NCBI GenBank assembly: GCA_001567355.1
Contig: JYNZ01000003.1
Coordinates: 179,991-243,990 of the forward strand
DNA from: a candidate division WS6 bacterium OLB20
GTDB lineage: Bacteria > Patescibacteriota > Dojkabacteria > B142 > OLB20
Reading direction: 5' to 3'
Length of the DNA stretch: 64,000 bases
Shown here: piece after piece, positions 6,774-42,998 of the stretch
Numbering within the stretch: the stretch's first letter is position 1
Layout of the letters: every line of letters begins with the position of its first letter
Made by a program: the position numbers and the translations under genes
Notes under the pieces: generated by a model
What the model was told of the DNA's origin: nothing
The model's input: only the letters and a program-made list of their open reading frames with translations
Database searches by the model: none

Positions 6774-6916
6774 GAGCAGAGTATAGCATTTTGAGATTAC
6801 AAAGCTCTTAGGGGATCAATGAAAATAGAGGAGGCGATGAAAACGTTCGTATAACGAAGGTTAACTGATTGCACACTCGTATTTGTGACTTTTCGTCTTC
6901 GACTCAAAGGCAAATA

Positions 6917-7004
6917 CGGAGAGGAAGGGATTCGAACCCTTGAGGACGTTGCCGCCCTGCCGGTTTTCAAGACCAGTGCATTCGACCACTCTGCCACCTC
7001 TCCG
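6917..7004 (-). tRNA. tRNA-Ser (anticodon UGA)
   Basis: The reverse complement is GGAGAGGTGGCAGAGTGGTCGAATGCACTGGTCTTGAAAACCGGCAGGGCGGCAACGTCCTCAAGGGTTCGAATCCCTTCCTCTCCG. It has a 7-bp acceptor stem, anticodon loop CTTGAAA (TGA), a long variable arm and a GGTTCGAATCC T-loop. No CCA is encoded. Confidence 0.85.
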
Positions 7005-16374: not shown

Positions 16375-17664
16375 ATGGGACTCATGTTCCTTACTTCTGT
16401 TGTATCCGCACAGGTTAACATTAACTCCAAGACCGAAGATTCCGATTCCCAGTTTTTTGAACTAAGTGATACTGACCAGCTGGTATCTAATACCGGTGGC
16501 GAATTCACACCCGGCGATACAACACCGACCCCCACGACTCCGCCGATTAATCAGCTGCCTGACACAGGTACCCAGGTTGATTCAAACATACCTGTTGTCA
16601 GGACGTTTCAGGAACAGATAGTGACGATAGAAGAACGTCTGATCAACAGCGAGACGACACCAGAATTCATCAAGAACATAGTTACAACGCTGGGGCTGCC
16701 GACAGCAACCGCTGTAGGGTTTTCCCTGGCTTTTCTGCCCGCAATTCTTACCCTGATACCACTGATACTGTCGCCGCAACTGCTGTTTCTGCTGCTCGGC
16801 GCTGTCTTTGGCGAGCAGAAGAATGTATGGGGTATCGTCATGGACTCCAAAACTAAAAAAGCTGTACCGTTTGCGGTTGTCAGACTGTTTGAGCAGAACA
16901 GCACTGCACAGATCACCCAGAAAGTCAGCGATCTTGAGGGGCGGTACGGTTTTGTACTGTCTGAGGGTAAATACAGAATCGAAGTCAGCCAGAGCGGCTA
17001 TACAACCTTTAAAAAGGACATTACGATTGCCAGCGATGAAGAACTGTTTACAGAGGACATTATGCTGGAAAAGGAGACATACGACAGCCCGCTCAAAGCG
17101 ATCACAAGAGCTTTCAGCGATATCAAGGCGTTGACGTTTAAATATAGTATCTATCTTGTCATCATAGGGTTTGTCTTCTCTGTACTGTCGCTCATTATTC
17201 AGTCAAGCTTCATCTCACAGCTGTTATTCCTATTCTACCTTGGGACACTTCTACTTTACGTATACATTCGCTTTCGCAAGAATAGAACCTGGGGAGTCAT
17301 TCTTGATTCTCAGACGGGACTCCGGATTTCCGGGGCCACTATCAGACTGTTTGACCCCCAGAACAGCCTTGCCGATACTCAGCTGTCTGATACACAGGGC
17401 AGGTTTGGCTTTCTTGCAGACCCCGGACAGTACTCATTATTAGTGTCTGCTTCGGGATATTCATTCCCGTCACAAAAGCAGAAAGACCTGCACAAGAATG
17501 ACGACAACAAGAAACTGCTCGATGTACACGTAAAGAAACCAAAATGGCTAAACCTTGCCATCCTGCTGGACCCGGGAGAGTCCGACAGCGATGCTGAACA
17601 ACCGGCAGCGTCTGTAAAGGCGCCGTCACAACCGTCTAATCTTTTATCACCGTTTGCAGGATGA
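16375..17664 (+). CDS. polytopic membrane protein with two carboxypeptidase-regulatory-like (CarbopepD_reg-like) domains
   Basis: Start at internal ATG 16375 (MGLMFLTSVVSAQ signal; track ORF begins 16309). Two repeats of GIVMDSKTKKAVPFAVVRLF...GRYGF / GVILDSQTGLRISGATIRLF...GRFGF are separated by hydrophobic segments. An LPDTG motif sits near the N-terminus. Confidence 0.5.
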   Translation: MGLMFLTSVVSAQVNINSKTEDSDSQFFELSDTDQLVSNTGGEFTPGDTTPTPTTPPINQLPDTGTQVDSNIPVVRTFQEQIVTIEERLINSETTPEFIKNIVTTLGLPTATAVGFSLAFLPAILTLIPLILSPQLLFLLLGAVFGEQKNVWGIVMDSKTKKAVPFAVVRLFEQNSTAQITQKVSDLEGRYGFVLSEGKYRIEVSQSGYTTFKKDITIASDEELFTEDIMLEKETYDSPLKAITRAFSDIKALTFKYSIYLVIIGFVFSVLSLIIQSSFISQLLFLFYLGTLLLYVYIRFRKNRTWGVILDSQTGLRISGATIRLFDPQNSLADTQLSDTQGRFGFLADPGQYSLLVSASGYSFPSQKQKDLHKNDDNKKLLDVHVKKPKWLNLAILLDPGESDSDAEQPAASVKAPSQPSNLLSPFAG

Positions 17665-20600
17665 AGCACACCATTCCGGGCATACTGAGAACTGCTGCAG
17701 CAATGCTGCTGTTCTTTGCAGTTGCGGCCGGCGGGGTTTATGCCCAGAACGCCCCCACGCGCGACACATACGAGTTTAAAAACAGGATCGTTGATGAGGA
17801 CGGTCAGGCCATACCTGACGGAACATACAACATGAAGTTTATCCTGTTTAATCAGGCTGGAGGGGGAACCGAGCTCTGGAGCGAGGCTAGGACGGTAGCC
17901 ACGCGCCGCGGCAACTTCAGTGTTGACCTGGGCTCTCTCAATCCGCTTCCCAAAAATGTGCTCGGCGAGACTGCTAATCTGTATCTTCATATCTGTCTCG
18001 ACTTCAACGGTGCCGACGGTGACGGCAGCGGTATCTGCGCAACACGGTATGAGGAAAACTTCCGTTCACGCAAGCGGATCACATCCGTGCCCTGGGCGCT
18101 GCGTTCATTTGCTCTGGGACCGGTATCGATCAACGAAGGAGGAGTCGGTTTTCCCATCAATGTTACAGGTGGCAACGGTACAATTACCTCATTCCGCTAC
18201 CTTGGAGGTGACAGACTGTCGATCGGCACAGACGGTACAACAACGTTTTCCAACGGAACTAACTCATTTAATATCAATCCCGGCTCACAGCGGATTAATC
18301 TGACCGGGGGGGCCGACATCTTTTTTGGTTCGTCTTCTCTTAAAAGCACTGGCGCTGGAGTTTCCGGTGCCACCATCATCGGTGTCAATCAGGCTAACTT
18401 TACAAATATCAGCGGTGCCAATGTACAGCAGGTTCTGGACTCTATCGATGATGCCATCGGTGGCGGAGGCGGTGGAGGAGGTCCGGAGACAGACCCTGTC
18501 TGGATTGCAGAAAAGGCTTCAGCCACATCTATAACCGGTGCATGGACATTTTCAGCTGCGCCGACATTCTCACAGGGGGTTGTCCTCGGCAATAACTCCG
18601 GAACAGCTGCAGGTACAATCAGATACACAGGCACGGACTTTGAAGGGTATAACGGCTCAAGCTGGCTTTCACTGACCGGCGGCGGAGGAGGAGGACCCGA
18701 AAGTGACCCTGTATGGAGCGCAGATCGTGATTCAGACCCGACAACGGTTGGTGCAGACTGGACATTCATTAGTCCGCTGACAACAGATGATCTGATTCCT
18801 GCATCAGATGATTCAGCAGTGATAGGTCAGGACGGCAGCCGCTACTCCGAGGGCCGGTTCAGCAACTTTGTCGGTATCGGTACCGATGCAAATTTTGCCG
18901 GTGACGCAGCTTTGCATATTGATTCCCGGGGGACAGCAGCTGTCTCCGGAGGCAACAACTATCCGGTCAGAATCAGTACAGAATATGACCCGACCGGTCT
19001 TGCCGGTACAGAAAACTTTAACAACATCTACATTACAAGTACGGTCAATGCAGGTGACGGGACGACGCTCAACCGCCAGCGTGGAGTGCGGACCGAACTG
19101 ACAAACAACAGCACAGGACCTCTGAACGGAATCTACAGCTCTTCCCATTCTGCCTGGAATAACGGTCCCATCAATGGCAGCCTGTACTCATACAGTGGCT
19201 TTGTTCAGAACAATGACAGTGTTACAGGATTTATCAATTCCGTCGGTACCACCGTCGAAAATAACGGCACCGCAGTAAATCTGCGATCCTTTGAATCGCT
19301 CATGAATAATAATGGCGACAACAGCTCTGCAATAGGATTACATATTATCGCTAACAACACGGGCAGCAATGCCGGAGGATTTTCCGGAGAGATCCTTACC
19401 ATCAATAATCAGGCCAGCGGCATAACCAACAACCTCTACGGGGAGGGAATAACAGTTACAAATAACGGAGAGGTAACCGGCCGGGGTCATGTCGGATGGT
19501 ACGGTTTTCACAACCATGGGACATTTTCGGATGTAGATCACGTCTTCTACGAATTCAATGCAGTTAACCATGCGACAGGATCATTGCCGCAATGGTACGG
19601 CTGGAGTAACATCCAGCGTAACGACGGCGAGGCTCGCGGCGGCTGGCTCAACATGCGCAACCAGATCTGGGTCGGTTCAACCGGAACGCACAGCGGTGGC
19701 ATTGATGTTCTTGGAAACATGGTACTGAACGAGGGATCCATCACTGGAGATGTGTTTACAGTGAACAACACAACGGCTTTTGGTTCAACCTCAGGCAACG
19801 TTTACGGCACAAGGAATACAGTAGGCTCCAACCACCTGCTCGAGAGTTTTCCGCATGCAGCGACAAATGTGTACGGAACGGTCAATGAGGTAATCGCTTC
19901 TGGTGGACAGGAGATCACAGCCAGTAACACCCTTACCGGACTGCGTAACGAAATCTACGGTCCGGTCAGCGCCGGGACGACCATGTACGGTATCTACAAC
20001 AATATCATCCCTGACGGCACAGCGTCCGAGTTTGCAGGTATTTACAACTTCATCGATCCATCCGCTGCCGGTGATCCGTCAGACTACTACGGAATGTATT
20101 CCAGCAATGGTATTTCTGAAGTATGGCTTAACTACCAGGGTACACCGGGCACCAATTACTCGATCTTTGGAGGACCTGCATACTTTGAGACAGTTGACAT
20201 AAACGGTGAAGAGAACAGACTGGCAAATACACCAGGATCTGCTGCTACAGCTGATCTTTACTACGGAAATGATCTGCTTTGCGATGTCAGCGAACCCAAC
20301 TGCGGTTCAGGCGGTGGCGGTGGTGGAAGCCTCTGGACAGATGACGGTTTCGGCAATATCTACTACGACACCGGAGGCGTTGGAATCGGCGCTCAGTCCC
20401 CGTACGGTGAAGGACTGTACATCGAAGGTGATGGTAATATCGGTCTCTCAGTATACAACGGCAGCGTCGGACTTGAAGGCCCTGTCGGCATCGGATCTAC
20501 AACATACAACGGCTTTAACAACGAAATGCTCTATATCGAGCGCCCGAACTCCAGCGCCCACATCCGCTTCCAGGATGGTGGCTGGGGTGACCCGTTCTCA

Positions 20601-21839
20601 CCTGATGAGGGTTCATTGTGGTGGAACGGCTCCGAGCTGAACTTCTACGATGGATCTACAACAACTGACCTGCTCGCTGGCGGTGGTGGTGGAGGAGGCT
20701 TCTGGACCGAAAGCTGCTGCGGTGATATCTACTACGAAAGCGGCTATGTCTCGATCGGAACCAGTTCAACCAATGAACTCTTCACACTGAGTGGCGGATT
20801 CTACCAGGGAGGCGACTCGGTTGCATTTCTTGATGAGGACATATATCTCCTAGACTACGACGGATTCTACTTCGGTCAGAACAGCCAGACGGACAGTTAC
20901 TTCTATGGAAACATGTATCTCAACAACACCTATTTTGAGTGGGACTTCGGTGATGTCTACTTTGATTCAGGCAATGAGCTTGTTTTCGGTAACAATGGTA
21001 CACCGAGCTATTTCTACGGCACAGTAGAGCACTACGGTCAGACGTACTTCTATGACGGTATTAACCTGTCAACGGGTGATATGTATGTGAGCAGCGGTAA
21101 CCTCTCTGTCGAAAACGGATATCTCTGTGTGGACGACGGTACGTACTCCTGCCCGGCATCAACTGCAGGAACAATCTACGGACAGTACGCATATTCTGAA
21201 TTTGATATCGCAGAGAATATCCATGCCAGACAGGGTGTCGAAGCAGGCGACATCGTTATGCCTGACAGCGATTCCCCCGAAAGTGTCCGCAAGAGCGACC
21301 GTGCATATGCACATAATGTACTTGGCGTTATCAGCACAGACCCGGGAGTACGCGGAGGCGTCAATCTGGAAGAGAAATCAGGCTACAGCGTCCAGCCGAT
21401 ATCCCTGGCCGGACGCGTTCCTGTAAAGGTCAACAATCAGAACGGCAGCATCGCCATTGGTGACCCGATCACCACTTCAGACACTCCGGGTGTGGGTATG
21501 AAGGCGACAAACAGCGGACGCATCATCGGATTTGCACTTGAGGCTTTTGATGGCAGCGAGGGACAGATCATTGTGTTCCTTAACGCAACACATTATGCGG
21601 CCGAAAATGACAACAATGGCACACGGGCTGTTGCAGGAAAAGCGATACTGAATGCCGGAGAGATCGCAGTAACAATCGAAGATACGAACGTTAGAGCTGA
21701 CAGCGTTATCATACTGACACCGACCAGCTCGACACAGGGACAGTTCCCCTACGTACTGTCACAGACAGATGGCAGCTTCACCGTCAGAATTGACAGCGCT
21801 GTAGAGCGCGACATCTCCATGAACTACATGGTTAACTGA
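17661..21839 (+). CDS. giant (1392 aa) secreted fibrous surface protein with poly-Gly tracts
   Basis: ATGA overlap with the upstream gene. Signal peptide present. Four Gly6-8 tracts, each followed by PETDPVW / PESDPVW / SLWTDDGFGNIYYD / FWTESCCGDIYYE. Two copies of (I/L)(R/W)(Y/W)-x-G-x-x-(F/L)-x-(G/F)Y(N/D)GS(S/T) (IRYTGTDFEGYNGSSW, LWWNGSELNFYDGSTT). Strong terminator follows. Confidence 0.6.
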   Translation: MKHTIPGILRTAAAMLLFFAVAAGGVYAQNAPTRDTYEFKNRIVDEDGQAIPDGTYNMKFILFNQAGGGTELWSEARTVATRRGNFSVDLGSLNPLPKNVLGETANLYLHICLDFNGADGDGSGICATRYEENFRSRKRITSVPWALRSFALGPVSINEGGVGFPINVTGGNGTITSFRYLGGDRLSIGTDGTTTFSNGTNSFNINPGSQRINLTGGADIFFGSSSLKSTGAGVSGATIIGVNQANFTNISGANVQQVLDSIDDAIGGGGGGGGPETDPVWIAEKASATSITGAWTFSAAPTFSQGVVLGNNSGTAAGTIRYTGTDFEGYNGSSWLSLTGGGGGGPESDPVWSADRDSDPTTVGADWTFISPLTTDDLIPASDDSAVIGQDGSRYSEGRFSNFVGIGTDANFAGDAALHIDSRGTAAVSGGNNYPVRISTEYDPTGLAGTENFNNIYITSTVNAGDGTTLNRQRGVRTELTNNSTGPLNGIYSSSHSAWNNGPINGSLYSYSGFVQNNDSVTGFINSVGTTVENNGTAVNLRSFESLMNNNGDNSSAIGLHIIANNTGSNAGGFSGEILTINNQASGITNNLYGEGITVTNNGEVTGRGHVGWYGFHNHGTFSDVDHVFYEFNAVNHATGSLPQWYGWSNIQRNDGEARGGWLNMRNQIWVGSTGTHSGGIDVLGNMVLNEGSITGDVFTVNNTTAFGSTSGNVYGTRNTVGSNHLLESFPHAATNVYGTVNEVIASGGQEITASNTLTGLRNEIYGPVSAGTTMYGIYNNIIPDGTASEFAGIYNFIDPSAAGDPSDYYGMYSSNGISEVWLNYQGTPGTNYSIFGGPAYFETVDINGEENRLANTPGSAATADLYYGNDLLCDVSEPNCGSGGGGGGSLWTDDGFGNIYYDTGGVGIGAQSPYGEGLYIEGDGNIGLSVYNGSVGLEGPVGIGSTTYNGFNNEMLYIERPNSSAHIRFQDGGWGDPFSPDEGSLWWNGSELNFYDGSTTTDLLAGGGGGGGFWTESCCGDIYYESGYVSIGTSSTNELFTLSGGFYQGGDSVAFLDEDIYLLDYDGFYFGQNSQTDSYFYGNMYLNNTYFEWDFGDVYFDSGNELVFGNNGTPSYFYGTVEHYGQTYFYDGINLSTGDMYVSSGNLSVENGYLCVDDGTYSCPASTAGTIYGQYAYSEFDIAENIHARQGVEAGDIVMPDSDSPESVRKSDRAYAHNVLGVISTDPGVRGGVNLEEKSGYSVQPISLAGRVPVKVNNQNGSIAIGDPITTSDTPGVGMKATNSGRIIGFALEAFDGSEGQIIVFLNATHYAAENDNNGTRAVAGKAILNAGEIAVTIEDTNVRADSVIILTPTSSTQGQFPYVLSQTDGSFTVRIDSAVERDISMNYMVN

Positions 21840-22120: not shown

Positions 22121-24114
22121 ATGGATAGCTCACGAAGATTTATAACCGAACCAGAGCTGTACGAGCTTTTCCCTGATGCGCGCATAGGCATCCTGTATCT
22201 GCACGGACTGAAACAGCGTGAAGGAGCTGAAAAACCCGCTGCTAACCTGCGTGAGAATGTTTCCGAGCGCCTTTCAGCACGTTCGATACCATACAACAGG
22301 ACCGAAAACCATGCTGCATGGTCCGCAGTATTTTCCGCGCTTGGTATAGGCGACAAGCAAACACTGGCTTCACATCTCGCCCTGTTAAAACGGTTCCAGA
22401 GCAGCAGTCAATTGCCTCAAATTCATCCTCTCGTCGACGCATACAACCACATATCTGCTCTGCGGGAGCTTCCCGTTGGAGGACATGATGTGTCAGGGAT
22501 AACAGAGGTTACTGTCGGAAAAACAACCGGCGAGGAGACATTCAGAACGATGAACAGTGACACCGAAGAAACTGTTGAGACAGGAGAATGGGCCTATCTG
22601 GATCGCACCGGTAAACGCGTTTTAACCCGAAACCTTGTCTGGCGTCAGAGTGAGTACTCAAAGATTTCTGGAACACCCGAGGCTGTGATGCTTCCTCTTG
22701 ACGATTTTACCGGTTCCTTCTCCGACAGTGAACTTGCTGGTATTGCTGAAGAGCTGGTCAGTGTTCTGGCTGGCATCTACGACTTCACCTGGGACTTTGG
22801 TGTAGTGAGTCGCTACAACAACGTAAAGACTCTCAATCCAGGCAATTCAAGCAATTCTATCAAAACAAGCATTCTTCTGCTAACGAGACCCGAAACCGAT
22901 ACAACCCCCGAATCCATTGACCGGTTCTTTGATCATAAGATTGATCAGGTATACCCGTCTGCAGATGCACTGCGCAAAGCACTTGCTTCGGGCAGAAGGC
23001 TAAGCTTTTATATCGGCGCTGATGCGACAGGGCCGCGGCTTCACCTTGGACACCTGATCCCGGTGCTGAAACTGAGACAACTCCAGCAGATGGGTCACCG
23101 GCTGATATTTCTCATTGGTGACTTTACCGCAAGGATAGGTGACCCCACCGATAAGACAGCTGCCCGTGTGATGCTGAGTCAGGATGACGTAGAACGTAAT
23201 GCAGAGCGGTTCAGAAACCAGATCGCCCGCTACATCGATTTTGATGATGATCAGAATCCTGCGGAGCTTGTTTTCAACTCCGACTGGAACAAGGCTCTTA
23301 CCATGCTGATGTAATCAGCCTCGGATCACGCTTCACTGTTCAGCAGATGCTTGAACGTGATATGTTCCAGGTGCGCATGCAGGAGAATAAACCAATTTAT
23401 CTGCACGAGTTCTTTTACCCACTGCTTCAGGGATACGACTCGGTGCACATGGAGGTGAGCGGAGAATTTGGCGGCAGAGACCAGACATTTAACATGCTTG
23501 CCGGAAGGGATCTAGAAAAAAGCATGAAGGGTATTGATAAATTCGTGATCACAACACATTTCCTTCTTGCCGCCGACGGTAACAATAAAATGAGCAAGAG
23601 CATAGGTAACTGTATATTTATCGAAGACACGCCAGAGGACAAATACGGAAAGGTTATGTCCATACCGGACCAACTCATCAGACATTATTATGAGTTCGCA
23701 ACGCTCCTGACCAGAGAAGAAATTGACACAGTATTAGCTCAACAGACAGATCCGCTGGAACAGAAAAAACAGCTCGCATTTGAGGTGACCAGACTCAACG
23801 ATGGCGAAGAAGCAGCGCTGAATGCACAAACTCACTTTGAAAAGACGGTTCAGCAGAAAGAGATGCCCGAAGACGTGAGGACAGTTGCCCGAAGAGAAAT
23901 ACGCGAGATTGCAGCGACAGATAGCATTCAAATCAAATCTCTGCTAACAATTCTTGAATTAGCCGAAAGCAATTCTGATGCAAAGCGACTTGTCGTAGCT
24001 GGCGGCGTGGAGGTTGATGGCGAACGCCTCACCGACCCAAACCATGAGATCAGTCTGTCTGCTGTATCGACAATTCGTGCGGGCAAGAGAAACTGGGTTC
24101 AGTTTACAGATTAA
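22121..24114 (+). CDS. tyrS: tyrosyl-tRNA synthetase with an N-terminal B3/4-like domain; reading frame broken by an apparent 1-nt deletion near 23306
   Basis: Residues ~1-250 give HPLVDAYNHISALRELPVGGHD...GEETF...GEWAYLD, a B3/4 (PheT-type tRNA-binding/editing) pattern. Then YIGADATGPRLHLGHL (HIGH) follows. After the frame shift, the second ORF 23347..24114 carries KMSKSIGN and an S4-like C-terminus. The frame -1 translation upstream of 23347 (DVISLGSRFTVQQML) continues the TyrRS alignment, so ctg-atg was probably ctgG-atg. Confidence 0.7.
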
Positions 24115-24123
24115 CCAACCACC

Positions 24124-24240
24124 ATGAGAATTCTAAAACGACTCTGGAAACGCAATAAGAAACTGCTGCAATGGGTCCTTGTAGCGACCGCAATCATTGC
24201 ACTCGTTGCTTTGCCAGCGCTATCAGCATTTATTTTCTAA
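24124..24240 (+). CDS. possible 38-aa small membrane protein
   Basis: MRILKRLWKRNKKLLQWVLVATAIIALVALPALSAFIF has a basic N-terminus and one TM helix. It overlaps the long (TTG) version of the recG start. Speculative. Confidence 0.2.
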   Translation: MRILKRLWKRNKKLLQWVLVATAIIALVALPALSAFIF

Positions 24241-24244
24241 CCAC

Positions 24245-26203
24245 GTGCTGCTTACAGATCCGGTTACCAGCCTTGCATACATAAAAGATGCGTCAGCTGA
24301 AAAGCTGCGCGTTCTGGGAATAGAAACTGTCCGGGACCTTCTAAACCACATTCCCCGCTACTACAGCGATTCGAGAGAGCTTAGCAGACTCGAGGAGTTT
24401 TCAAAGACCCTGCCACATACTGCCGAAGTGACTCTGACCGGCTTCAGGTCTGTCAGAATCCGGGGCGGGCGGACACTGCAGCAGGCAACGGTCGAAGACG
24501 AATCAGCAAGTCTTACTGTTGTCTGGTTTAATCAGAAGTATCTGTCGCGGGTATTACAGCCGGGGGACAGATTACTGATTTCGGGCAAACTCAATCCCAA
24601 ATCAGACCGTCCACAGCTGTCTTCGCCCACATTTGAGAAAATCATTCCCTCAGGAGACGCACTCCACCTCGGAGGATTAATCCCTGTATACAGCCTGACA
24701 GCAGGGGTCTCGCAAAAGTGGCTGCGCAGAAGGATTTTCGAACTGATACGTAAGATTGACGCAATCGAAGACCTTTCTGACCCGCTTCCTGCTTCTATGC
24801 GCAAGCGATATAACCTGCTTATGCTGAAAGAGGCGTATCGTTTGATTCACAAACCGTCATCAACTGCTGATATCATGGCGGCCCGCAGGCGACTCGGGTT
24901 TGACGAACTGTTAGAAATACAGCGCAGATTTATTGCCGGTCGTGCTAAACGCAAACAGTTCAAATCTGTAAGCCTGACTGCAGACACAAAACTACTCATG
25001 CCGGTAATTGAACAGTTTCCTTTTCGCTTAAGCGACTCACAGTCTGCTGCTTTGAAAAAGATAATGCGTTCACTCGCATCAACCGAGCCCATGCGAACAC
25101 TGCTGCAGGGTGATGTGGGCAGTGGAAAAACAGCTGTCGCAGCACTGGCAGCTTATGTCGCAGTGACAGCTGGTAGCAGAACAGCCGTCCTGGCACCGAC
25201 GGTGATCCTTGCCAGGCAGTTGTACGATTCATTCCGCCGGTTTCTTCCGGCTGCTGTCGATATCGCATTTATCAGCGCAGCAAGCAAACCGGCCGAACAG
25301 GAACTCAGACAGACAGATATCGTTATTGGTACACACGCGCTACTCAACAAGTCGGACGCACTCGATAATCTTGGTCTGCTGATCATTGATGAACAGCACC
25401 GTTTTGGTGTTGCACAACGGAAAAAACTGCAAACCGTATTTGATGACAGAAAGGTCAGACCTCATACACTGCAGCTGACAGCCACCCCCATTCCGCGAAC
25501 AGTAGCCCAGACGCTATTTGGGGATGTAGACGTGATCAGGCTCGCGTCCCATAAGGAACGTGACAACATTCATACGAGTATTGTCCCCGAAGACAAGCGA
25601 GACCAGTGTATTTCATGGATCCAGAACCGGCTTGCTGCCGGCGACAGGGTGTTCTGGGTTGTTCCGTCGATCGAGGATGCCGGCGAGGAGCTCGCATCGA
25701 TAAAAAGTACGCAACGCACACTTACAAAAGCCTTCGGGAAAAATACAGTGACAATCATGCACGGCGAACTCAAAGAGAATGAAAAACTTGCAGCCCTTGA
25801 ACTCTTCAGTACAGGTAAACGCCCACTCATGCTCTCAACAACTGTAATTGAAGTGGGAATAAACGTACCTCTGGCGTCAGTCATGGTAATCGAATCTGCA
25901 GAACGTTTTGGACTGGCACAGCTGCATCAGCTGCGTGGGCGGGTAGGGCGTGCTGGACAGGAGGCGTGGTGCATGATGTTTACCTCCAATCCCGCTTCTC
26001 CACGTCTTGATGCATTTACCCGTCTTACCGATGGAGATTCTCTGGCAGAATTTGATCTGAAAGACAGGGGTCCTGGAGAAGTATATGGTACCGTGCAGTC
26101 AGGCATCCCCTCGCTAAAAATCGCCAGTTTTAGTAATATCGAACTTATGCAGCAGGCGCTTGAAGCTGCACAATCACTCTATAACTCAACACCCGTAATA
26201 TGA
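24245..26203 (+). CDS. recG: ATP-dependent DNA helicase RecG
   Basis: GDVGSGKTAVAALAA (Walker A), IIDEQHRFGV (DEQH), and the N-terminal wedge region ...LGIETVRDLLNHIPRYYSD. GTG at 24245 is preferred over the track's TTG at 24197. Confidence 0.7.
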   Translation: MLLTDPVTSLAYIKDASAEKLRVLGIETVRDLLNHIPRYYSDSRELSRLEEFSKTLPHTAEVTLTGFRSVRIRGGRTLQQATVEDESASLTVVWFNQKYLSRVLQPGDRLLISGKLNPKSDRPQLSSPTFEKIIPSGDALHLGGLIPVYSLTAGVSQKWLRRRIFELIRKIDAIEDLSDPLPASMRKRYNLLMLKEAYRLIHKPSSTADIMAARRRLGFDELLEIQRRFIAGRAKRKQFKSVSLTADTKLLMPVIEQFPFRLSDSQSAALKKIMRSLASTEPMRTLLQGDVGSGKTAVAALAAYVAVTAGSRTAVLAPTVILARQLYDSFRRFLPAAVDIAFISAASKPAEQELRQTDIVIGTHALLNKSDALDNLGLLIIDEQHRFGVAQRKKLQTVFDDRKVRPHTLQLTATPIPRTVAQTLFGDVDVIRLASHKERDNIHTSIVPEDKRDQCISWIQNRLAAGDRVFWVVPSIEDAGEELASIKSTQRTLTKAFGKNTVTIMHGELKENEKLAALELFSTGKRPLMLSTTVIEVGINVPLASVMVIESAERFGLAQLHQLRGRVGRAGQEAWCMMFTSNPASPRLDAFTRLTDGDSLAEFDLKDRGPGEVYGTVQSGIPSLKIASFSNIELMQQALEAAQSLYNSTPVI

Positions 26204-26994
26204 CAGTCATCCAGGCAGTTATTCTCGGAATAATTCAGGGAGTTACAGAATTCCTTCCGATATCAAGTTCGGGACATCTCGCTATCGTGCCGTATCTGTC
26301 GGGGTGGGAGCAGCAGTCTCTGGACTTCGACATCATTGTTCACGGAGCAACACTTCTGGCCATCCTCATCTTCTACAGGCAGCGCCTGAGCAGTATCATC
26401 ACTACTACATTCTCCAAAGACCCCGTATCTCGCAAGACGAGCATGCGACTTATCAGAAACATCGTCCTGACATCTGTCCCTGCAACACTGATAGCCCTGT
26501 TGCTCAAAGATACAATCGAGAGCAATTCTGACAACATCCCGGTTATTGCCACAGCACTTATCAGTGTCGGTATAGTCCTGGTGTACCTCGAGCGTATGTT
26601 TAAAAATACACGTCGACTTGAGCGCATTCAGCCCGGCGAAGCACTCTTTATCGGTTCCATGCAGGGGCTGGCATTGATACGAGGGGTCTCCAGATCGGGT
26701 ATTACCATTATTGGCGGAGCCCTTGCAGGTCTATCCCGAAAAGAAGCGGTCGACTACGCGTTCCTTGCTTCCATCCCCGTACTGACCGGCAGCGTTGTTC
26801 TTACAGCTGCGGATATTGCAGCCAGCGGACTTACAGAAGAGCCGCACGTTCTGCTTGCCGGATTTGCTGCAGCATTTATAAGCGGTTACGCAGCGATCAG
26901 CTTTCTGATCAATTATGTTAAGAAGCATGATTTTGCCGTCTTTGGCTGGTACCGTATAATCCTCGGCATACTTCTTCTGATAATTGCATTATGA
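26200..26994 (+). CDS. uppP: undecaprenyl-diphosphate phosphatase (BacA/UppP)
   Basis: MTVIQAVILGIIQGVTEFLPISSSGHL is the UppP N-terminal signature. Eight hydrophobic segments. ATGA overlap with recG. Confidence 0.8.
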   Translation: MTVIQAVILGIIQGVTEFLPISSSGHLAIVPYLSGWEQQSLDFDIIVHGATLLAILIFYRQRLSSIITTTFSKDPVSRKTSMRLIRNIVLTSVPATLIALLLKDTIESNSDNIPVIATALISVGIVLVYLERMFKNTRRLERIQPGEALFIGSMQGLALIRGVSRSGITIIGGALAGLSRKEAVDYAFLASIPVLTGSVVLTAADIAASGLTEEPHVLLAGFAAAFISGYAAISFLINYVKKHDFAVFGWYRIILGILLLIIAL

Positions 26995-38081: not shown

Positions 38082-38652
38082 TTCTCAGACACTGATAATC
38101 ACAGCAGCAGCACTCATCCTGTTTATCTCCGGTGGAGTGTTTGCAGTTATGGGGCTATCATCCTCAGCATCAGGAAACGATCCTGCTGTGACACTGCTGG
38201 ACAGCATCGGCAGTGAAAATCAGTATCGGGCCTGTTCAGGAAGCGCTGCCGAGGTATGCTTCAGCTGGCAGTATCTGACAGGCAGCTTCGCAGACAACAC
38301 GCTCACCGTGGGCGATGCAAGTCTCACGCTGTCCGGCAGGTACAACCGTGAGACAGATATTGAAGAGATTTCGCGCGATCTTAATGTGATCTATTACAGC
38401 AGGCCCGAGGGTGATCAGCTGACCGGATACCTGCAGACCGATAAGGATACGTTTGTGACTGGATCGACCGGATCCTGTGTTGAGGGTGCTTTCTTCTATT
38501 TTGACAGATTTCCGGCAGGGCTGGACCTGCTGAAGCTGCCTGTAGACGATGGTCACAGAGGCTTTCTGGAGCTGTATCCGTGTGACAGTAACCCGGCACA
38601 GGAACAGTTTTTCAGCTATACTAGACTTGAGCGCCAGCTGATTGATTTATGA
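38071..38652 (+). CDS. small membrane-anchored family protein 4
   Basis: ATG at 38071 overlaps the upstream stop (ATGAACCGTAA). TM IITAAALILFISGGVFAVMG. The track ORF starts earlier at 38008. Confidence 0.45.
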   Translation: MNRNSQTLIITAAALILFISGGVFAVMGLSSSASGNDPAVTLLDSIGSENQYRACSGSAAEVCFSWQYLTGSFADNTLTVGDASLTLSGRYNRETDIEEISRDLNVIYYSRPEGDQLTGYLQTDKDTFVTGSTGSCVEGAFFYFDRFPAGLDLLKLPVDDGHRGFLELYPCDSNPAQEQFFSYTRLERQLIDL

Positions 38653-41600
38653 AGACAAACCGCGCAAATCTGCTGTTCCTGATCTTCGGCATACTAGTTG
38701 CTGTCACGTTTGTAACGGCCAAATCAAATAATGCAGACGCACTCTCAATGGGTGTCGGCTGCTGGACACGCTGGAAGCAGCAGTACAGCATGGGATGGCA
38801 CTGCGACGGTTCCGCATCTGTTCGCAACAGGCCCTATGATGTATGGGTCTGGCACTGTCAGCAGGCAAATCTGAGCTGGTGTGATGCCAACAACGGCGGA
38901 GTGCTTATCACGAAACAGTCGTTCGGTGGGCCTGTGCCGGTTGAATTCACTTCTTCCGCAAGTGGTTACGGAAACTGCGGAAGCGTTCAGATGGACATCG
39001 GTCTTCCCGGTGCTTCTGACCACGGTGTAGCTGGAGGCGCAATTTACTCCAACGGCACAAGCTGCTCAAGTCCGCCACAACCGACAACACCTCCAAGTCA
39101 GTGCGGTAACTGGAACGATACACAGTTCTGGACCGGCTGCTGGGGCGAACCATACCCCGGCTGCGGGGGTCTTGGTGGATGGATCAGCGGTAACGACGTG
39201 ACCAGCCGCAACCCGAGCAGACCGTTTCCGCTTGATATCAACTGCTTTACCAACCTGGGATCTGCATGGACATCTGCGACTGTATCACTTGTTTACAATG
39301 GAAGCACAATCGGAAATTACAACACCTGGGCACCGCGAAACATCAATATCAGCTCACCGGGAACATACGAGGCGTTGTGCCGGGACCGTGTAGCACCAAA
39401 CTGTTACGACATTGACCGCTTCACCGTGCAGTGCGTCAATACCTGCGGCAGTGCCAGAGACCCCAATGCACCCACACTCAGCTCGCCGTCGAACGGTGCA
39501 ACACTGACAAACAGGAATGTGACGCTGACATGGTCTCACAGCGGATTTGGACGCTGCGGCGGCAACAGCTGCTCGGGCGGTTGTAACAGTACAAATCCGA
39601 CGAGCCTGAGTGTAACCCTTAACGGTCCTGGTGGAGGTACGGTCGTACTGCCCGGCGGCTCAACATCATATACATTTACAAATCTGACAGGCAAAAACTA
39701 TACCTGGTATGTTACGGCCCGCAACGGCTGCAATCTGACTGAACAGTCTGTTGTCAGATCGTTTGTCATCAACTCACCACCGACATTTAACGGATCAGTC
39801 ACAAGCAACCAGATATGTACAGCGGGTGGAGTAACCACAGGCGGATCAGCGCAATGGAGCGGCATCCACGCCAACTCAGTCATCGGAAACGGGACCAGCG
39901 GCATCAACAATCCTCTGACTGTGCGTGTGACCTACGATGATCCGGATGGAAGAGCTGATCTGAACCGTCTGGAGGTCTGGCTTGGCGATAATAACAGCCC
40001 GGCGCCGGGTGCAACAGCTGTCTCGACTTCGGCAAGCGCGTCCCTTGCATATGGCGGAGGATCAAATCATACACTCTATGCAGCAGGAGGAAGCAGTCGA
40101 TCAATAGACAGTAACAACTCCGGAAACCAGGCAGTACTCACATCAGGATCAAATACACAATCAATTGTTGCTGTTTCAGGTTCAACAACCGGCACAGCAT
40201 ATGCGCTGCCCAGGATTGTCTCAACCACAGCAACTTCAGTTGTTGTTGACTGGCAGCTTGGTCTGTTTAACTCTTCAGCGTTTGACGGTGACGTCCGGAT
40301 CTATGCACGCGCAGTTGACCAGTCCGGTGTAGCAGCAGGGTGGAGTATTATTGACACCTGGAGGGTCGACCTTCGCTATCCCAACCCCGTTGCCAACCTT
40401 ACTCTGCGTAACCAGACAGCATTTGATGTTACGTACTCTGCTAATGACGCCACCAGTCCGGTACTTTCATATTCCAAGACCTGTACCTCGAGTCTTGCAG
40501 CCAGCGAGTCGATCACACTCAACCAGGTCGCGCCTGGCGCATCACCAAACAGCCGGACGTTTACCGGCAACCAGAATCAGAATCCGTGTTTTGATAATCT
40601 TGCAGGCACGACCTACTACACTGTCAATAACACACCCCGGGATGGAACGCTGCGGTTTAACTGGACAGCCAAGGACTCCGCCTGTAACACCGCACCCTCG
40701 ACCTCAGCCGATCTTCGCCTGAAACCGCCATGGATGATGACTGTCGACGGTGATACATTTACCAGTCAGGGTATCAGGCAGACATCAATCAATGACATTA
40801 ACACCATTAACAACCCGAACCTGCCGGACCAGCACAACCGTGTACCGTATCTATCCGACTACAACTTCATGCTTGAGACGGGCTCGCTGCCTGCCAAGGA
40901 TACCGAGCGAGACCTTGCCGTTGACGATTACGATGACCTCAACGGAAAGCCAAGGGCCGAGTTCGGTTTTCCGGACTGGTTCAGTTTTGTCGATGCCCGG
41001 ATTCTCCGCAATCTGCCGGCAAATCAGATCGCAACAGTTAACGGTCCGCAGACATTCAGCGATGTAACATCACAGCAGGTGGCACAGGCACTCGGCATGA
41101 CGGGTGTAGAGATCAACGGATTTGCGGGCACAGGTGATGCGAAAGTAAATGTCATCAAAGTGATCGGCAATCTGACCTTAAACAGGGTCAGCTGCAACAC
41201 AAAGACTATCTTTCTGGTAACGGGCAACCTAACAATCAACCCCGAATCGCGAATATCAGACGACCCGCGCAACGATGTAATCAACGGGTGCATGTATGTT
41301 GTGGCAGGCAGGACAACGGTACTGCCCGGACAGAATGCCGATGTTCTTGGAGCTGCAACCGAGCGGGCGAGGGTGCTTGGCACCAGCGCTCAGGTTCTGG
41401 CTGCATCATTTGAGACTGCAGCCACAACTGCTGCCAGAAACAACAACGGGCAGTGTGTCGTCGGTATCCTGACAAACCATGCGGATGTCTATAATTCAAA
41501 TTATGATACCGGTTATGGCGTCGGCCGGGCAGAGATTCAGGCCCTGGTGCCGCAAGGCTATGTTGACCAGGTGAAACTGCTAACACAGATCTCACCGGCA

Positions 41601-42998
41601 ACCGAGTACAACAACATCGATCTGCTGTTTGTTAATGAGGCAAACCTGACCAACCTTCCTCAGGGTGGAGACCCGAATAATGCGCTTTCCTATCAGTGCG
41701 GCGTAGCCGGATATGTCCGTGCTGAAAACCCCAACCTCTATCCGGGCATGATCAATGCTGTATACGCTAACTGGTTGAATGGTATGAATATCATCATGTC
41801 AGCGGACAACGGAATCTCATCACAACGACTTGGCAGCACCAGCACATGTTTTGATTTTGCCAACTCCCTGACCGGTCCTCTGAATAATGCCATAATGAGC
41901 AATCACAGCAATGCGTTTAATTTCCTTTCTGTCGGGGATGCAAGCACAAACAGGCTGGTTGCCGGACAATACGACCCGACCGACAACGGAGGAGTGGACA
42001 CGAGAGTAATCTCAAGTGGTCCGGCTATGCTGAGCGGCGCATTTCAGGATTACAGAGGTGGCAGGGATACTCCAGGAAATATAGTCCATAACGGTGCAGG
42101 CGGAATAAACGCTCAGTGTCTCTCGACGGTGGTGCTTCAGGACAGGGTGGACTGGCCGACGATAAACCGCTTTAACGCATGTACGCTCGCATACGTTCCT
42201 CCCACCTCAACCCGCGGGTACTATGTCATCGATTCTAATGCAGCAACTGCAGTAAGATCCAAATGGGGCAGCATGCTGACCGAGATACCCGACTGCAATC
42301 CACCCACCCCGACACCCACTGCGGTGACAACCCCGGTAACGACTCCTCCAGCAAATGCGCCCACACTTAACAGCGTCAGCGCAACCTGCACCGGTACTGG
42401 TAACAACTACAACATCAGTGCTTCATGGACCGGAGGAGGGACGGGCACATTCTGGTTTGATATTGATGATCAGAATCCACACGCAGTCACCTGGTTTAAC
42501 CATGATAACGGTAACAACCGGAGCATGAACGTCAATCAGAACAACTTCCAGCAGTATACGGAGGCCGGTAATTCCAGAAACAGTGGAGTCCGTCTGGCTC
42601 TGACTCCAGGTGCAACCTACTACGCTAAGGTTTATGATGCACAGCGTGCTGTTGCTTCAAACTACAGGAGCTTTACGGCCCCGGTATGCTCAACACCTAC
42701 CCCGACACCGCCGCCGATTGATACCAACGCTGATTACGATACGCTGGATGGCTTTATCCTGACAAATTCGTTTGAAAGCCCGTTTGATTCACAGTATGAT
42801 GGACTAAGGATCGTCGGTGCAGTCATTGCAATGGAGAACAACAACTTCAACCGGGATTTCGGAGTTGTTCTCAACCAGCTGACACCATCAGAGATCATTT
42901 ATTACGACGGGGGACGCTATATGTACCTGTTTGGCAGAATACTGTCAATGCCCAACAGTTTTAATATCGTCGAGAAACCTTTTATTGATTCGTTCTAA
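38649..42998 (+). CDS. giant Cys-rich secreted protein, paralog B (1449 aa)
   Basis: Signal peptide. Cys-rich N-terminal region. An FN3-like block (PSNGATLTNRNVTLTWSH...YTWYVTARNGC). Pro/Thr linkers (PPTPTPT, TPTPTPPP). C-terminal module ending NIVEKPFIDSF. Roughly 450 aa are collinear with paralog A. Confidence 0.6.
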   Translation: MKTNRANLLFLIFGILVAVTFVTAKSNNADALSMGVGCWTRWKQQYSMGWHCDGSASVRNRPYDVWVWHCQQANLSWCDANNGGVLITKQSFGGPVPVEFTSSASGYGNCGSVQMDIGLPGASDHGVAGGAIYSNGTSCSSPPQPTTPPSQCGNWNDTQFWTGCWGEPYPGCGGLGGWISGNDVTSRNPSRPFPLDINCFTNLGSAWTSATVSLVYNGSTIGNYNTWAPRNINISSPGTYEALCRDRVAPNCYDIDRFTVQCVNTCGSARDPNAPTLSSPSNGATLTNRNVTLTWSHSGFGRCGGNSCSGGCNSTNPTSLSVTLNGPGGGTVVLPGGSTSYTFTNLTGKNYTWYVTARNGCNLTEQSVVRSFVINSPPTFNGSVTSNQICTAGGVTTGGSAQWSGIHANSVIGNGTSGINNPLTVRVTYDDPDGRADLNRLEVWLGDNNSPAPGATAVSTSASASLAYGGGSNHTLYAAGGSSRSIDSNNSGNQAVLTSGSNTQSIVAVSGSTTGTAYALPRIVSTTATSVVVDWQLGLFNSSAFDGDVRIYARAVDQSGVAAGWSIIDTWRVDLRYPNPVANLTLRNQTAFDVTYSANDATSPVLSYSKTCTSSLAASESITLNQVAPGASPNSRTFTGNQNQNPCFDNLAGTTYYTVNNTPRDGTLRFNWTAKDSACNTAPSTSADLRLKPPWMMTVDGDTFTSQGIRQTSINDINTINNPNLPDQHNRVPYLSDYNFMLETGSLPAKDTERDLAVDDYDDLNGKPRAEFGFPDWFSFVDARILRNLPANQIATVNGPQTFSDVTSQQVAQALGMTGVEINGFAGTGDAKVNVIKVIGNLTLNRVSCNTKTIFLVTGNLTINPESRISDDPRNDVINGCMYVVAGRTTVLPGQNADVLGAATERARVLGTSAQVLAASFETAATTAARNNNGQCVVGILTNHADVYNSNYDTGYGVGRAEIQALVPQGYVDQVKLLTQISPATEYNNIDLLFVNEANLTNLPQGGDPNNALSYQCGVAGYVRAENPNLYPGMINAVYANWLNGMNIIMSADNGISSQRLGSTSTCFDFANSLTGPLNNAIMSNHSNAFNFLSVGDASTNRLVAGQYDPTDNGGVDTRVISSGPAMLSGAFQDYRGGRDTPGNIVHNGAGGINAQCLSTVVLQDRVDWPTINRFNACTLAYVPPTSTRGYYVIDSNAATAVRSKWGSMLTEIPDCNPPTPTPTAVTTPVTTPPANAPTLNSVSATCTGTGNNYNISASWTGGGTGTFWFDIDDQNPHAVTWFNHDNGNNRSMNVNQNNFQQYTEAGNSRNSGVRLALTPGATYYAKVYDAQRAVASNYRSFTAPVCSTPTPTPPPIDTNADYDTLDGFILTNSFESPFDSQYDGLRIVGAVIAMENNNFNRDFGVVLNQLTPSEIIYYDGGRYMYLFGRILSMPNSFNIVEKPFIDSF

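Follow-up and report, generated by a model that had tools for sequence, protein, structure and literature searches.

A CtdA-family B3/4 domain on the tyrosyl-tRNA synthetase of Dojkabacteria: a candidate cis-editing site encoded by a frameshifted gene in OLB20 and by intact genes in its relatives

The tyrS locus of the WS6/Dojkabacteria metagenome-assembled genome (MAG) OLB20, at 22121-24114 (+) of the 64-kb window (the whole stretch of DNA that was analysed), combines the coding sequence of an ordinary bacterial tyrosyl-tRNA synthetase (TyrRS) with that of an N-terminal domain related to the canavanyl-tRNA deacylase CtdA. The gene is present as two adjacent open reading frames (ORFs) in different frames, and restoration of one missing base yields a housekeeping protein of 664 amino acids. 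From sequence comparison and structural models we consider it probable (roughly 0.6) that the N-terminal domain would serve as a cis post-transfer editing site for a tyrosine-like amino acid on tRNATyr. To our knowledge, TyrRS, ArgRS and LysRS are classically described as lacking an editing domain. CtdA, the closest characterized relative of the domain, was discovered in 2023. It hydrolyses canavanyl-tRNAArg and spares Arg-tRNAArg (PMC10018355, PMC12449066), and it has been described as a single-domain, trans-acting protein with one known substrate.

ORF1 contains a match to the Pfam family B3_4 (PF03483) at residues 67-196 (E = 1.4e-11; 44.7 bits, above the gathering cut-off of 29.3) followed by a match to tRNA-synt_1b, the catalytic domain of class I W/Y synthetases, at residues 291-395 (E = 3.7e-27). 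Besides B3_4, the protein contains only the Pfam domains tRNA-synt_1b and S4, and NCBIfam holds no model for the N-terminal domain. Neither a stop codon nor an in-frame ATG, GTG or TTG occurs between residues 230 and 314, the sole candidate starts being GTG codons at residues 229 and 315, so that the two domains are translated as one chain. The first-pass annotation of this DNA had proposed that a B3/4-fold domain precedes TyrRS in one and the same frame, no plausible start codon lying between the two; these proposals hold, the N-terminal part matches the B3/4 profile that was to be looked for, and the motifs quoted there, including LVWRQS (part of VLTRNLVWRQS) and HLGH, lie where they were placed. 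The characteristic motifs of the N-terminal domain are DAYN (22436-22447), PVGGHD (22472-22489) and VLTRNLVWRQS (22619-22651); the remaining coordinates are collected in Table 1.

Judged by its sequence matches and modelled fold, the N-terminal domain is a complete CtdA-family unit and not a fragment of PheT. In a search of all PDB sequences at E <= 10, it matched only the CtdA proteins of S. enterica (9mkl, E = 4e-10) and P. canavaninivorans (9f7e, E = 5e-8), and no PheT chain was retrieved. The AlphaFold model of residues 1-245, with a predicted local distance difference test (pLDDT) value of 95.2 and a predicted template-modelling score (pTM) of 0.91, was matched by Foldseek to 9mkl_A over 227 columns with an E value of 2e-14, template-modelling (TM) scores of 0.79/0.86 and a root-mean-square deviation of 2.7 Å, and to 9f7e_A with TM scores of 0.78/0.83. 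The likeness to CtdA covers the whole fold of about 230 residues, including the CtdA-specific helical insert, whereas the β subunits of PheRS are weaker fold matches (TM about 0.48, E about 1e-5). The earlier description of the domain as PheT-type is therefore not sustained.

The aminoacyl pocket of CtdA is formed by N105, G116, E118, C166, Q173 and I189, and the substitutions N105A, G116H/W and Q173G kill its activity, while C166 tunes its specificity (PMC12449066). The equivalent positions in the OLB20 domain were located with a HMMER pairwise alignment and a MAFFT alignment of 164 domains. The three activity residues are kept as N109, G120 and Q176, whereas E118, C166 and I189 are replaced by H122, T169 and P192; in six-letter form the CtdA signature NGECQI becomes NGHTQP. 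By fold, sequence and activity residues the domain thus appears to belong to the broad CtdA/B3/4 deacylase family. Since the canavanine-related residues are replaced, it is predicted not to be a canavanyl-tRNA deacylase. Nor is it CtdA in the strict sense (CtdA-1, in which C166 is strictly conserved; PMC12449066), because it has kept neither E118 nor C166 and does not stand alone: CtdA acts in trans on tRNAArg, whereas the OLB20 domain is covalently attached to TyrRS and shares only about 20-23% identity with CtdA over the structure.

The same comparison bears on an editing domain of PheT type in the strict sense, which would bind a Tyr or Phe moiety in the manner of PheRS B3/4 and clear Phe-tRNATyr made by TyrRS or, in trans, Tyr-tRNAPhe. 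Such a role would accord with the shared B3/4 fold, with a Pfam family built largely on PheT and with the presence of PheRS β chains among the weaker fold matches; the B3/B4 domain of PheRS β (E. coli 6p26; T. thermophilus 1pys/3hfz) is itself a cis post-transfer editing domain on a synthetase for aromatic amino acids, and hydrolysis of Tyr/mTyr-tRNA by an ancestral B3/B4-like domain has been speculated upon (PMC12449066). However, of the editing-site residues of E. coli PheRS (R244, N254, Y255, H265, F267, A312, G318 and E334; PMC12449066), mapped indirectly through their CtdA correspondence in the same paper, only N254 has a counterpart, the catalytic-site N109; H265 falls on G120, F267 on H122, G318 on Q176 and R244 on a Pro. 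This indirect comparison with the PheT catalytic residues, with which the first-pass annotation had suggested an alignment, leaves a single Asn in common. Inserts and topology also differ, and the context is unlike: PheRS is a class II enzyme with the domain inside its β subunit alongside B1/B2, B5 and later domains, while in OLB20 the domain is attached to the N-terminus of a class I enzyme. With all but one of the editing residues and the domain context different, the OLB20 domain does not qualify as an editing domain of PheRS. Were the pocket to accept tyrosine itself, the enzyme would, moreover, destroy its own product. Together with the absence of PheT chains from the PDB sequence matches and the large gap in TM score, this makes a PheT-type role distinctly improbable.

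The C-terminal 400 amino acids are those of a normal bacterial TyrRS, with HLGH as the HIGH-type motif, KMSKS, the tyrosine pocket YPLLQGYD and an S4-like C-terminal domain. The TyrRS part matches T. thermophilus TyrRS (1h3e/9sfq) with a TM score of 0.83 and 32% identity, and the closest homologue of the OLB20 protein (P0002) scores 348.9 bits on TIGR00234 (cut-off 113.8). The residues that recognize tyrosine are invariant among the TyrRS compared. The model of the repaired full-length protein (664 residues) is compact (pLDDT 90.4, pTM 0.83). No solved TyrRS structure covers an N-terminal deacylase-type domain, the longest alignment spanning 443 of 664 columns.

The fusion is not peculiar to OLB20. 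Among the 120 best relatives retrieved with the TyrRS part, about 30 are intact at 637-703 amino acids and have precomputed PF03483 and PF00579 annotation, belonging to Dojkabacteria where a name is given; one further fusion (P0104, 560 amino acids) is N-terminally truncated. With the domain as query, a word-indexed search using the N-terminal 290 residues returned nothing besides the protein itself, while phmmer, run exhaustively over 1.8 billion representatives, returned 956 relatives, most of them free-standing proteins of 230-240 amino acids aligned over query residues 6-220. Both protein searches combined gave 46 B3/4-TyrRS proteins, nearly all intact and of 630-825 amino acids, with the domain always upstream of TyrRS and joined to it by a linker of about 25 residues in the Dojkabacteria fusions and up to about 100 in other groups. 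Because at least 45 other proteins share the identical two-domain order, a chance match is excluded. The closest homologue, P0002, is an intact protein of 663 amino acids with 65% identity in TyrRS, encoded on the closed 1.17-Mb Dojkabacteria chromosome CP129475.1, where the gene order is that of the window: giant protein, tyrS, recG, bacA, SpoU methylase and RsmD-like methylase. This shared order identifies the OLB20 locus as the housekeeping tyrS. A genome scan (narrow alignment, one peptide pattern, 4 loci) added three more Dojkabacteria MAGs and one other MAG, titled 'uncultured Pseudomonadales', with a B3/4-TyrRS fusion of 634 amino acids. In this last contig (CAZSJW010000004.1, 2207-4902) the start of the fusion gene lies 4 nt ahead of the stop of a gene resembling prephenate dehydrogenase, and an operon link between tyrosine biosynthesis and B3/4-TyrRS is possible there. 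The orthologues that the first-pass annotation had proposed to search for thus exist, and its view of the architecture needs division: a deacylase-type domain on TyrRS is indeed unusual, but a Dojkabacteria subclade has conserved it, and it is found in other lineages too.

The pocket residues of these fusions are strongly conserved. Among 44 TyrRS fusions, the activity positions carry N in 43, G in all 44 and Q in 40, and the specificity positions equivalent to E118 and C166 carry H and T, each in 42 of the 44. NGHTQP itself is found in 36; six have the single-position variants NGHTEP, NGHTLP, NGHTQT or SGHTQP, and two have NGYCQR. N109, G120, H122, T169, R175, P192 and D194 are among the residues that are invariant in 25 TyrRS-fused domains with an overall identity of 27-45%. 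In contrast, nine of ten ArgRS fusions of the same domain family have NGECEV/L/I, and the domain fused to a class I LysRS (P0266) has NGDCEY. The residues that contact the side chain thus differ from those of CtdA yet are fixed, and their identity follows the fused synthetase. Free-standing proteins show NGHTQP in 26 cases, and all 117 further free-standing relatives of P0135 have NGHTQP or NGHTEP; where named, these come from Thermomicrobium, Nitrolancea or Thermomicrobiaceae. A neighbour-joining tree of the domains (which carries no support values) recovered the same groups when the six signature columns were removed. In this tree TyrRS-fused domains of different lineages are interleaved with free-standing NGHTQP proteins, which suggests that the domain has been joined to TyrRS, or separated from it, several times.

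The dependence of the signature on the partner also bears on chirality proofreading, that is, removal of D-Tyr from tRNATyr in place of a missing DTD. D-Tyr-tRNATyr is, as is generally known, a classic TyrRS error (cited in PMC13149037). The genomes of the candidate phyla radiation (CPR) are reduced, and they may lack DTD. However, the pocket is acidic (E/D) in the Arg and Lys enzymes and carries His in the Tyr enzymes, and CtdA is side-chain specific (PMC12449066). As the signature thus differs according to which side chain the attached synthetase handles, recognition would be of the side chain and not of chirality, and we regard a D-Tyr proofreader as very improbable.

Within Dojkabacteria the module can be present or absent in near-identical strains. 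In a tree of 80 Dojkabacteria TyrRS, all of the fused enzymes fall within one half and unfused enzymes are nested among them. A fused enzyme of 656 amino acids (P0031) and an unfused one of 407 (P0029) are 97.5% identical over the TyrRS part, and their loci are 96-97% identical on either side of the indel, where 765 bp with the whole B3/4 domain in one (L011, 705-1469) give way to 19 bp that include a new ATG in the other (L003, 3989-4007), and no remnant of the domain is left. Since the module is all that sets such near-identical strains apart, it is accessory and not part of the aminoacylation machinery. In the same pair, recG is split into three ORFs in L011 (2830-4786; JGI Ga0099933_10258) and intact in L003, through sequencing errors or decay.

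This pair weighs on the further possibility of an appended tRNA-binding or folding module that has no catalytic relevance and helps TyrRS to bind tRNATyr. Appended RNA-binding domains are, as is generally known, common on aminoacyl-tRNA synthetases, one relative (P0125) pairs the domain with tRNA_bind, and the full-length model is compact. However, a TyrRS that is 97.5% identical and wholly lacks the domain evidently needs none for tyrosylation, which speaks against a role in structure or in tRNA binding; co-variation with the presence of the domain was found in no column of TyrRS, and the invariant residues are not only surface residues but include the pocket and catalytic positions N109, G120, H122, T169, Q176 and P192. 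We therefore regard such a module as improbable. The presence/absence pattern fits, by analogy, a conditionally useful protective function like that of CtdA against canavanine.

In the editing mechanism that we favour, TyrRS would charge tRNATyr with a non-cognate tyrosine-like amino acid, the 3' end of the mischarged tRNATyr would reach the B3/4 pocket and the amino acid would be hydrolysed there in cis, while Tyr-tRNATyr would be spared, in parallel with the discrimination by CtdA between canavanyl- and arginyl-tRNAArg. Candidate substrates include oxidised, halogenated or nitrated tyrosines, L-DOPA, azatyrosine and mimosine.

Several points weigh against this mechanism. TyrRS is classically deemed accurate enough without editing, and no active-site column of TyrRS tells fused from unfused enzymes, the best distinguishing column being a surface V/K at residue 384, so that there is no sign of a relaxed specificity in the synthetic site for editing to offset. 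For the NGHTQP group, we infer deacylase activity and tRNATyr specificity from homology and the fusion partner only, and the genomic context of two free-standing NGHTQP genes (P0129 and P0134) gave no tyrosine-related clue. The correlation between signature and partner is based on a limited number of independent fusions, not on 44. Finally, the OLB20 copy is frameshifted and may make no full-length protein at all.

The OLB20 tyrS is not one uninterrupted reading frame, as a 1-nt deletion lies within the catalytic domain. In alignments with homologues, whether fused or unfused, the two parts are collinear and the frame changes exactly at 23305/23306, in agreement with the downstream frameshift noted in the first-pass annotation; the missing base is the first of the codon after Met395, and adding one back gives the 664-residue protein. 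A sequencing or assembly error is an unlikely cause of the frameshift, for which that annotation had proposed a check by read mapping. The split gene, with 100% identical DNA over 7.2 kb, is also present in the Logan assemblies of SRR29904083, SRR29904084 and SRR29904086, no intact near-identical protein was found among 5.8 billion clusters, and the long neighbouring ORFs (1392, 1449 and 867 amino acids) are intact. Because the lesion is reproduced in the assemblies of three other runs while no near-identical intact version was found and the neighbours are undamaged, the deletion is very probably real and fixed in the strain. No other split gene was seen in ten adjacent ORF pairs.

Programmed -1 frameshifting and transcriptional slippage were considered as ways of restoring the protein and rejected. 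Neither a slippery heptamer (X XXY YYZ) nor a homopolymer occurs at CTT ACC ATG CTG ATG TAA, and RNA structure downstream of the shift site is not significant (z = -1.48); programmed recoding is therefore unlikely. The first start codon of ORF2, ATG 23347, lies 32 nt past the stop of ORF1, and a two-piece enzyme made from ORF1 and ORF2 would be short of 14 residues (ADVISLGSRFTVQQ). Among 20 gene starts sampled in the window (e.g. 2081, 12171, 22121, 26200 and 43004), almost none has a Shine-Dalgarno-like motif, the only one being 57971 (aaggag), and translation initiation appears to be largely Shine-Dalgarno-independent in the OLB20 genome. As most genes here have no such motif, a restart at ATG 23347 is conceivable. 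A catalytic domain in two parts has apparently not kept the strain from persisting, so that a natural two-piece TyrRS is possible.

The gene could instead be a dead pseudogene, with tyrosylation supplied by another tyrS in the genome and the fusion surviving in OLB20 as a relic. A deletion that splits the catalytic domain, is common to four assemblies and is accompanied by no slippery site, homopolymer or significant downstream RNA structure would be expected of such a gene. Its position is, however, that of the housekeeping tyrS, in the conserved order tyrS-recG-bacA; apart from the deletion neither half shows damage, and HLGH, the tyrosine pocket and KMSKS are preserved; no second TyrRS is encoded within the 64-kb window, and CPR genomes usually have one tyrS; the scarcity of Shine-Dalgarno motifs also makes the restart not implausible. 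On balance we consider a pseudogene unlikely, and a housekeeping tyrS carrying a candidate editing domain remains the preferred interpretation; in OLB20 it may still yield a working enzyme, as two pieces or through rare recoding, or its place may be taken by another copy.

The domain family has further partners. Fusion of the domain to the N-terminus of ArgRS was found in at least ten proteins, namely P0131, P0144, P0175, P0177, P0205, P0211, P0250 (named Candidatus Shapirobacteria), P0254 and P0257, of 817-1154 amino acids, and P0229, a fragment of 428 amino acids. Like the TyrRS fusions, they carry a CtdA-family domain at the N-terminus of a class I synthetase, and unlike them they have an ArgRS partner and a pocket (NGECEV) that is CtdA-like and consistent with canavanine-type editing. 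On their signatures they look like cis-editing ArgRS directed against canavanine-type analogues, a description of which was not found in the literature. P0126 (825 amino acids) combines a YbaK-like tRNA_edit domain, B3/4 and TyrRS, and hence two editing-type domains, and in P0146 (NGECEV) and P0183 (NGFTQV) the domain is fused to a GNAT acetyltransferase. The free-standing proteins of Thermomicrobia/Chloroflexi, annotated as 'phenylalanine--tRNA ligase beta subunit-related protein', resemble the TyrRS-fused domains in the NGHTQP signature and in being interleaved with them in the tree, and differ in not being fused to a synthetase. A second clade of CtdA proteins, CtdA-2 (Chloroflexi, Bacillota and archaea), lacks C166 and is of unknown specificity (PMC12449066); this clade may be the NGHTQP group, to which Thermomicrobia proteins belong.

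No report of an editing-domain TyrRS or of B3/4 fusions was found in a search of openly accessible literature in which matching of the phrase 'B3/4' was limited by its slash, and the words 'fusion' and 'fused' are absent from the CtdA literature examined. The architecture is visible in precomputed Pfam annotation, and so in a sense 'known' to databases, yet apparently undescribed.

Table 1. Coordinates of the features of the OLB20 tyrS locus in the window.
Feature	Coordinates	Strand	Description
ORF1	22121..23314	+	397 aa; CtdA-like B3/4 domain, linker and first half of TyrRS catalytic domain; database entry 'Tyrosine--tRNA ligase'
N-terminal CtdA-like B3/4 deacylase domain (predicted)	22121..22840	+	aa 1-240; Pfam B3_4, PDB sequence matches and fold match
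Asn109	22445..22447	+	Corresponds to CtdA N105, essential for CtdA activity (PMC12449066)
Gly120-Gly121-His122	22478..22486	+	G120 corresponds to CtdA G116; H122 at position of CtdA E118
Thr169 through Gln176	22625..22648	+	T169 at CtdA specificity residue C166; Q176 corresponds to CtdA Q173; within VLTRNLVWRQS
Pro192	22694..22696	+	At CtdA pocket residue I189
Linker	22841..22906	+	aa 241-262; short, without in-frame start codon; pLDDT falls to 72 in full-length model
TyrRS catalytic domain, first half	22907..23305	+	aa 263-395; includes HLGH (23042-23053)
Frameshift site	23303..23308	+	ACC ATG CT GAT versus TCG ATG AGT GAT in P0002; one base missing
Rest of TyrRS, -1 frame	23306..24114	+	YPLLQGYD (23416-23439), KMSKS (23587-23601), anticodon-binding and S4-like C-terminal domain
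End of ORF1	23314	+	TAA arising from the frameshift
ORF2 (mechanical call)	23347..24114	+	255 aa, starts at ATG 23347; remainder of tRNA-synt_1b and S4
recG and bacA (uppP)	24197..26994	+	Conserved downstream neighbours of tyrS

Elsewhere in the window, an ORF of 1392 amino acids with several poly-Gly runs and no Pfam match (17661-21839) lies directly upstream of tyrS; in the closed genome CP129475.1 (L012) a counterpart of 1525 amino acids occupies the corresponding place. A second long ORF, of 1449 amino acids (38649-42998), also has no Pfam match. A tRNA-Ser(TGA) gene at 6916-7004 (-) is the only RNA gene in the window according to Rfam and ARAGORN.

Taken together, these observations lead us to a wider and more tentative reading, to which we give somewhat less than even odds: TyrRS in several bacterial lineages would have gained a dedicated CtdA-family cis-editing domain whose signature tracks the synthetase (NGEC.. 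for ArgRS, NGDCEY for LysRS and NGHTQP for TyrRS). By the fusion-partner (Rosetta-stone) argument, the free-standing NGHTQP group of Thermomicrobia and others, possibly 'CtdA-2', would then be assigned to tRNATyr, a natural tyrosine antimetabolite that has to be kept out of the proteins of these organisms would be implied, and the TyrRS of OLB20 may work as two naturally separate pieces. Which synthetases are prone to error, and from which amino acids cells have to protect themselves, is defined by editing domains, and a conserved deacylase domain on TyrRS would surprise a specialist. The conserved fusion of TyrRS with a CtdA-like domain provides a definite example in which editing by a TyrRS can be tested. 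Its partner is also the first hint that a large uncharacterized branch of B3/4 deacylases may act on tRNATyr, so that partner and signature together open the function of this branch to direct experiment, and across the whole family the residue signature could predict the substrate class. The strain-level pattern of presence and absence fits defence against an environmental toxin better than a core function, and would suggest that the habitats of these bacteria contain a tyrosine analogue that has so far gone unrecognised.

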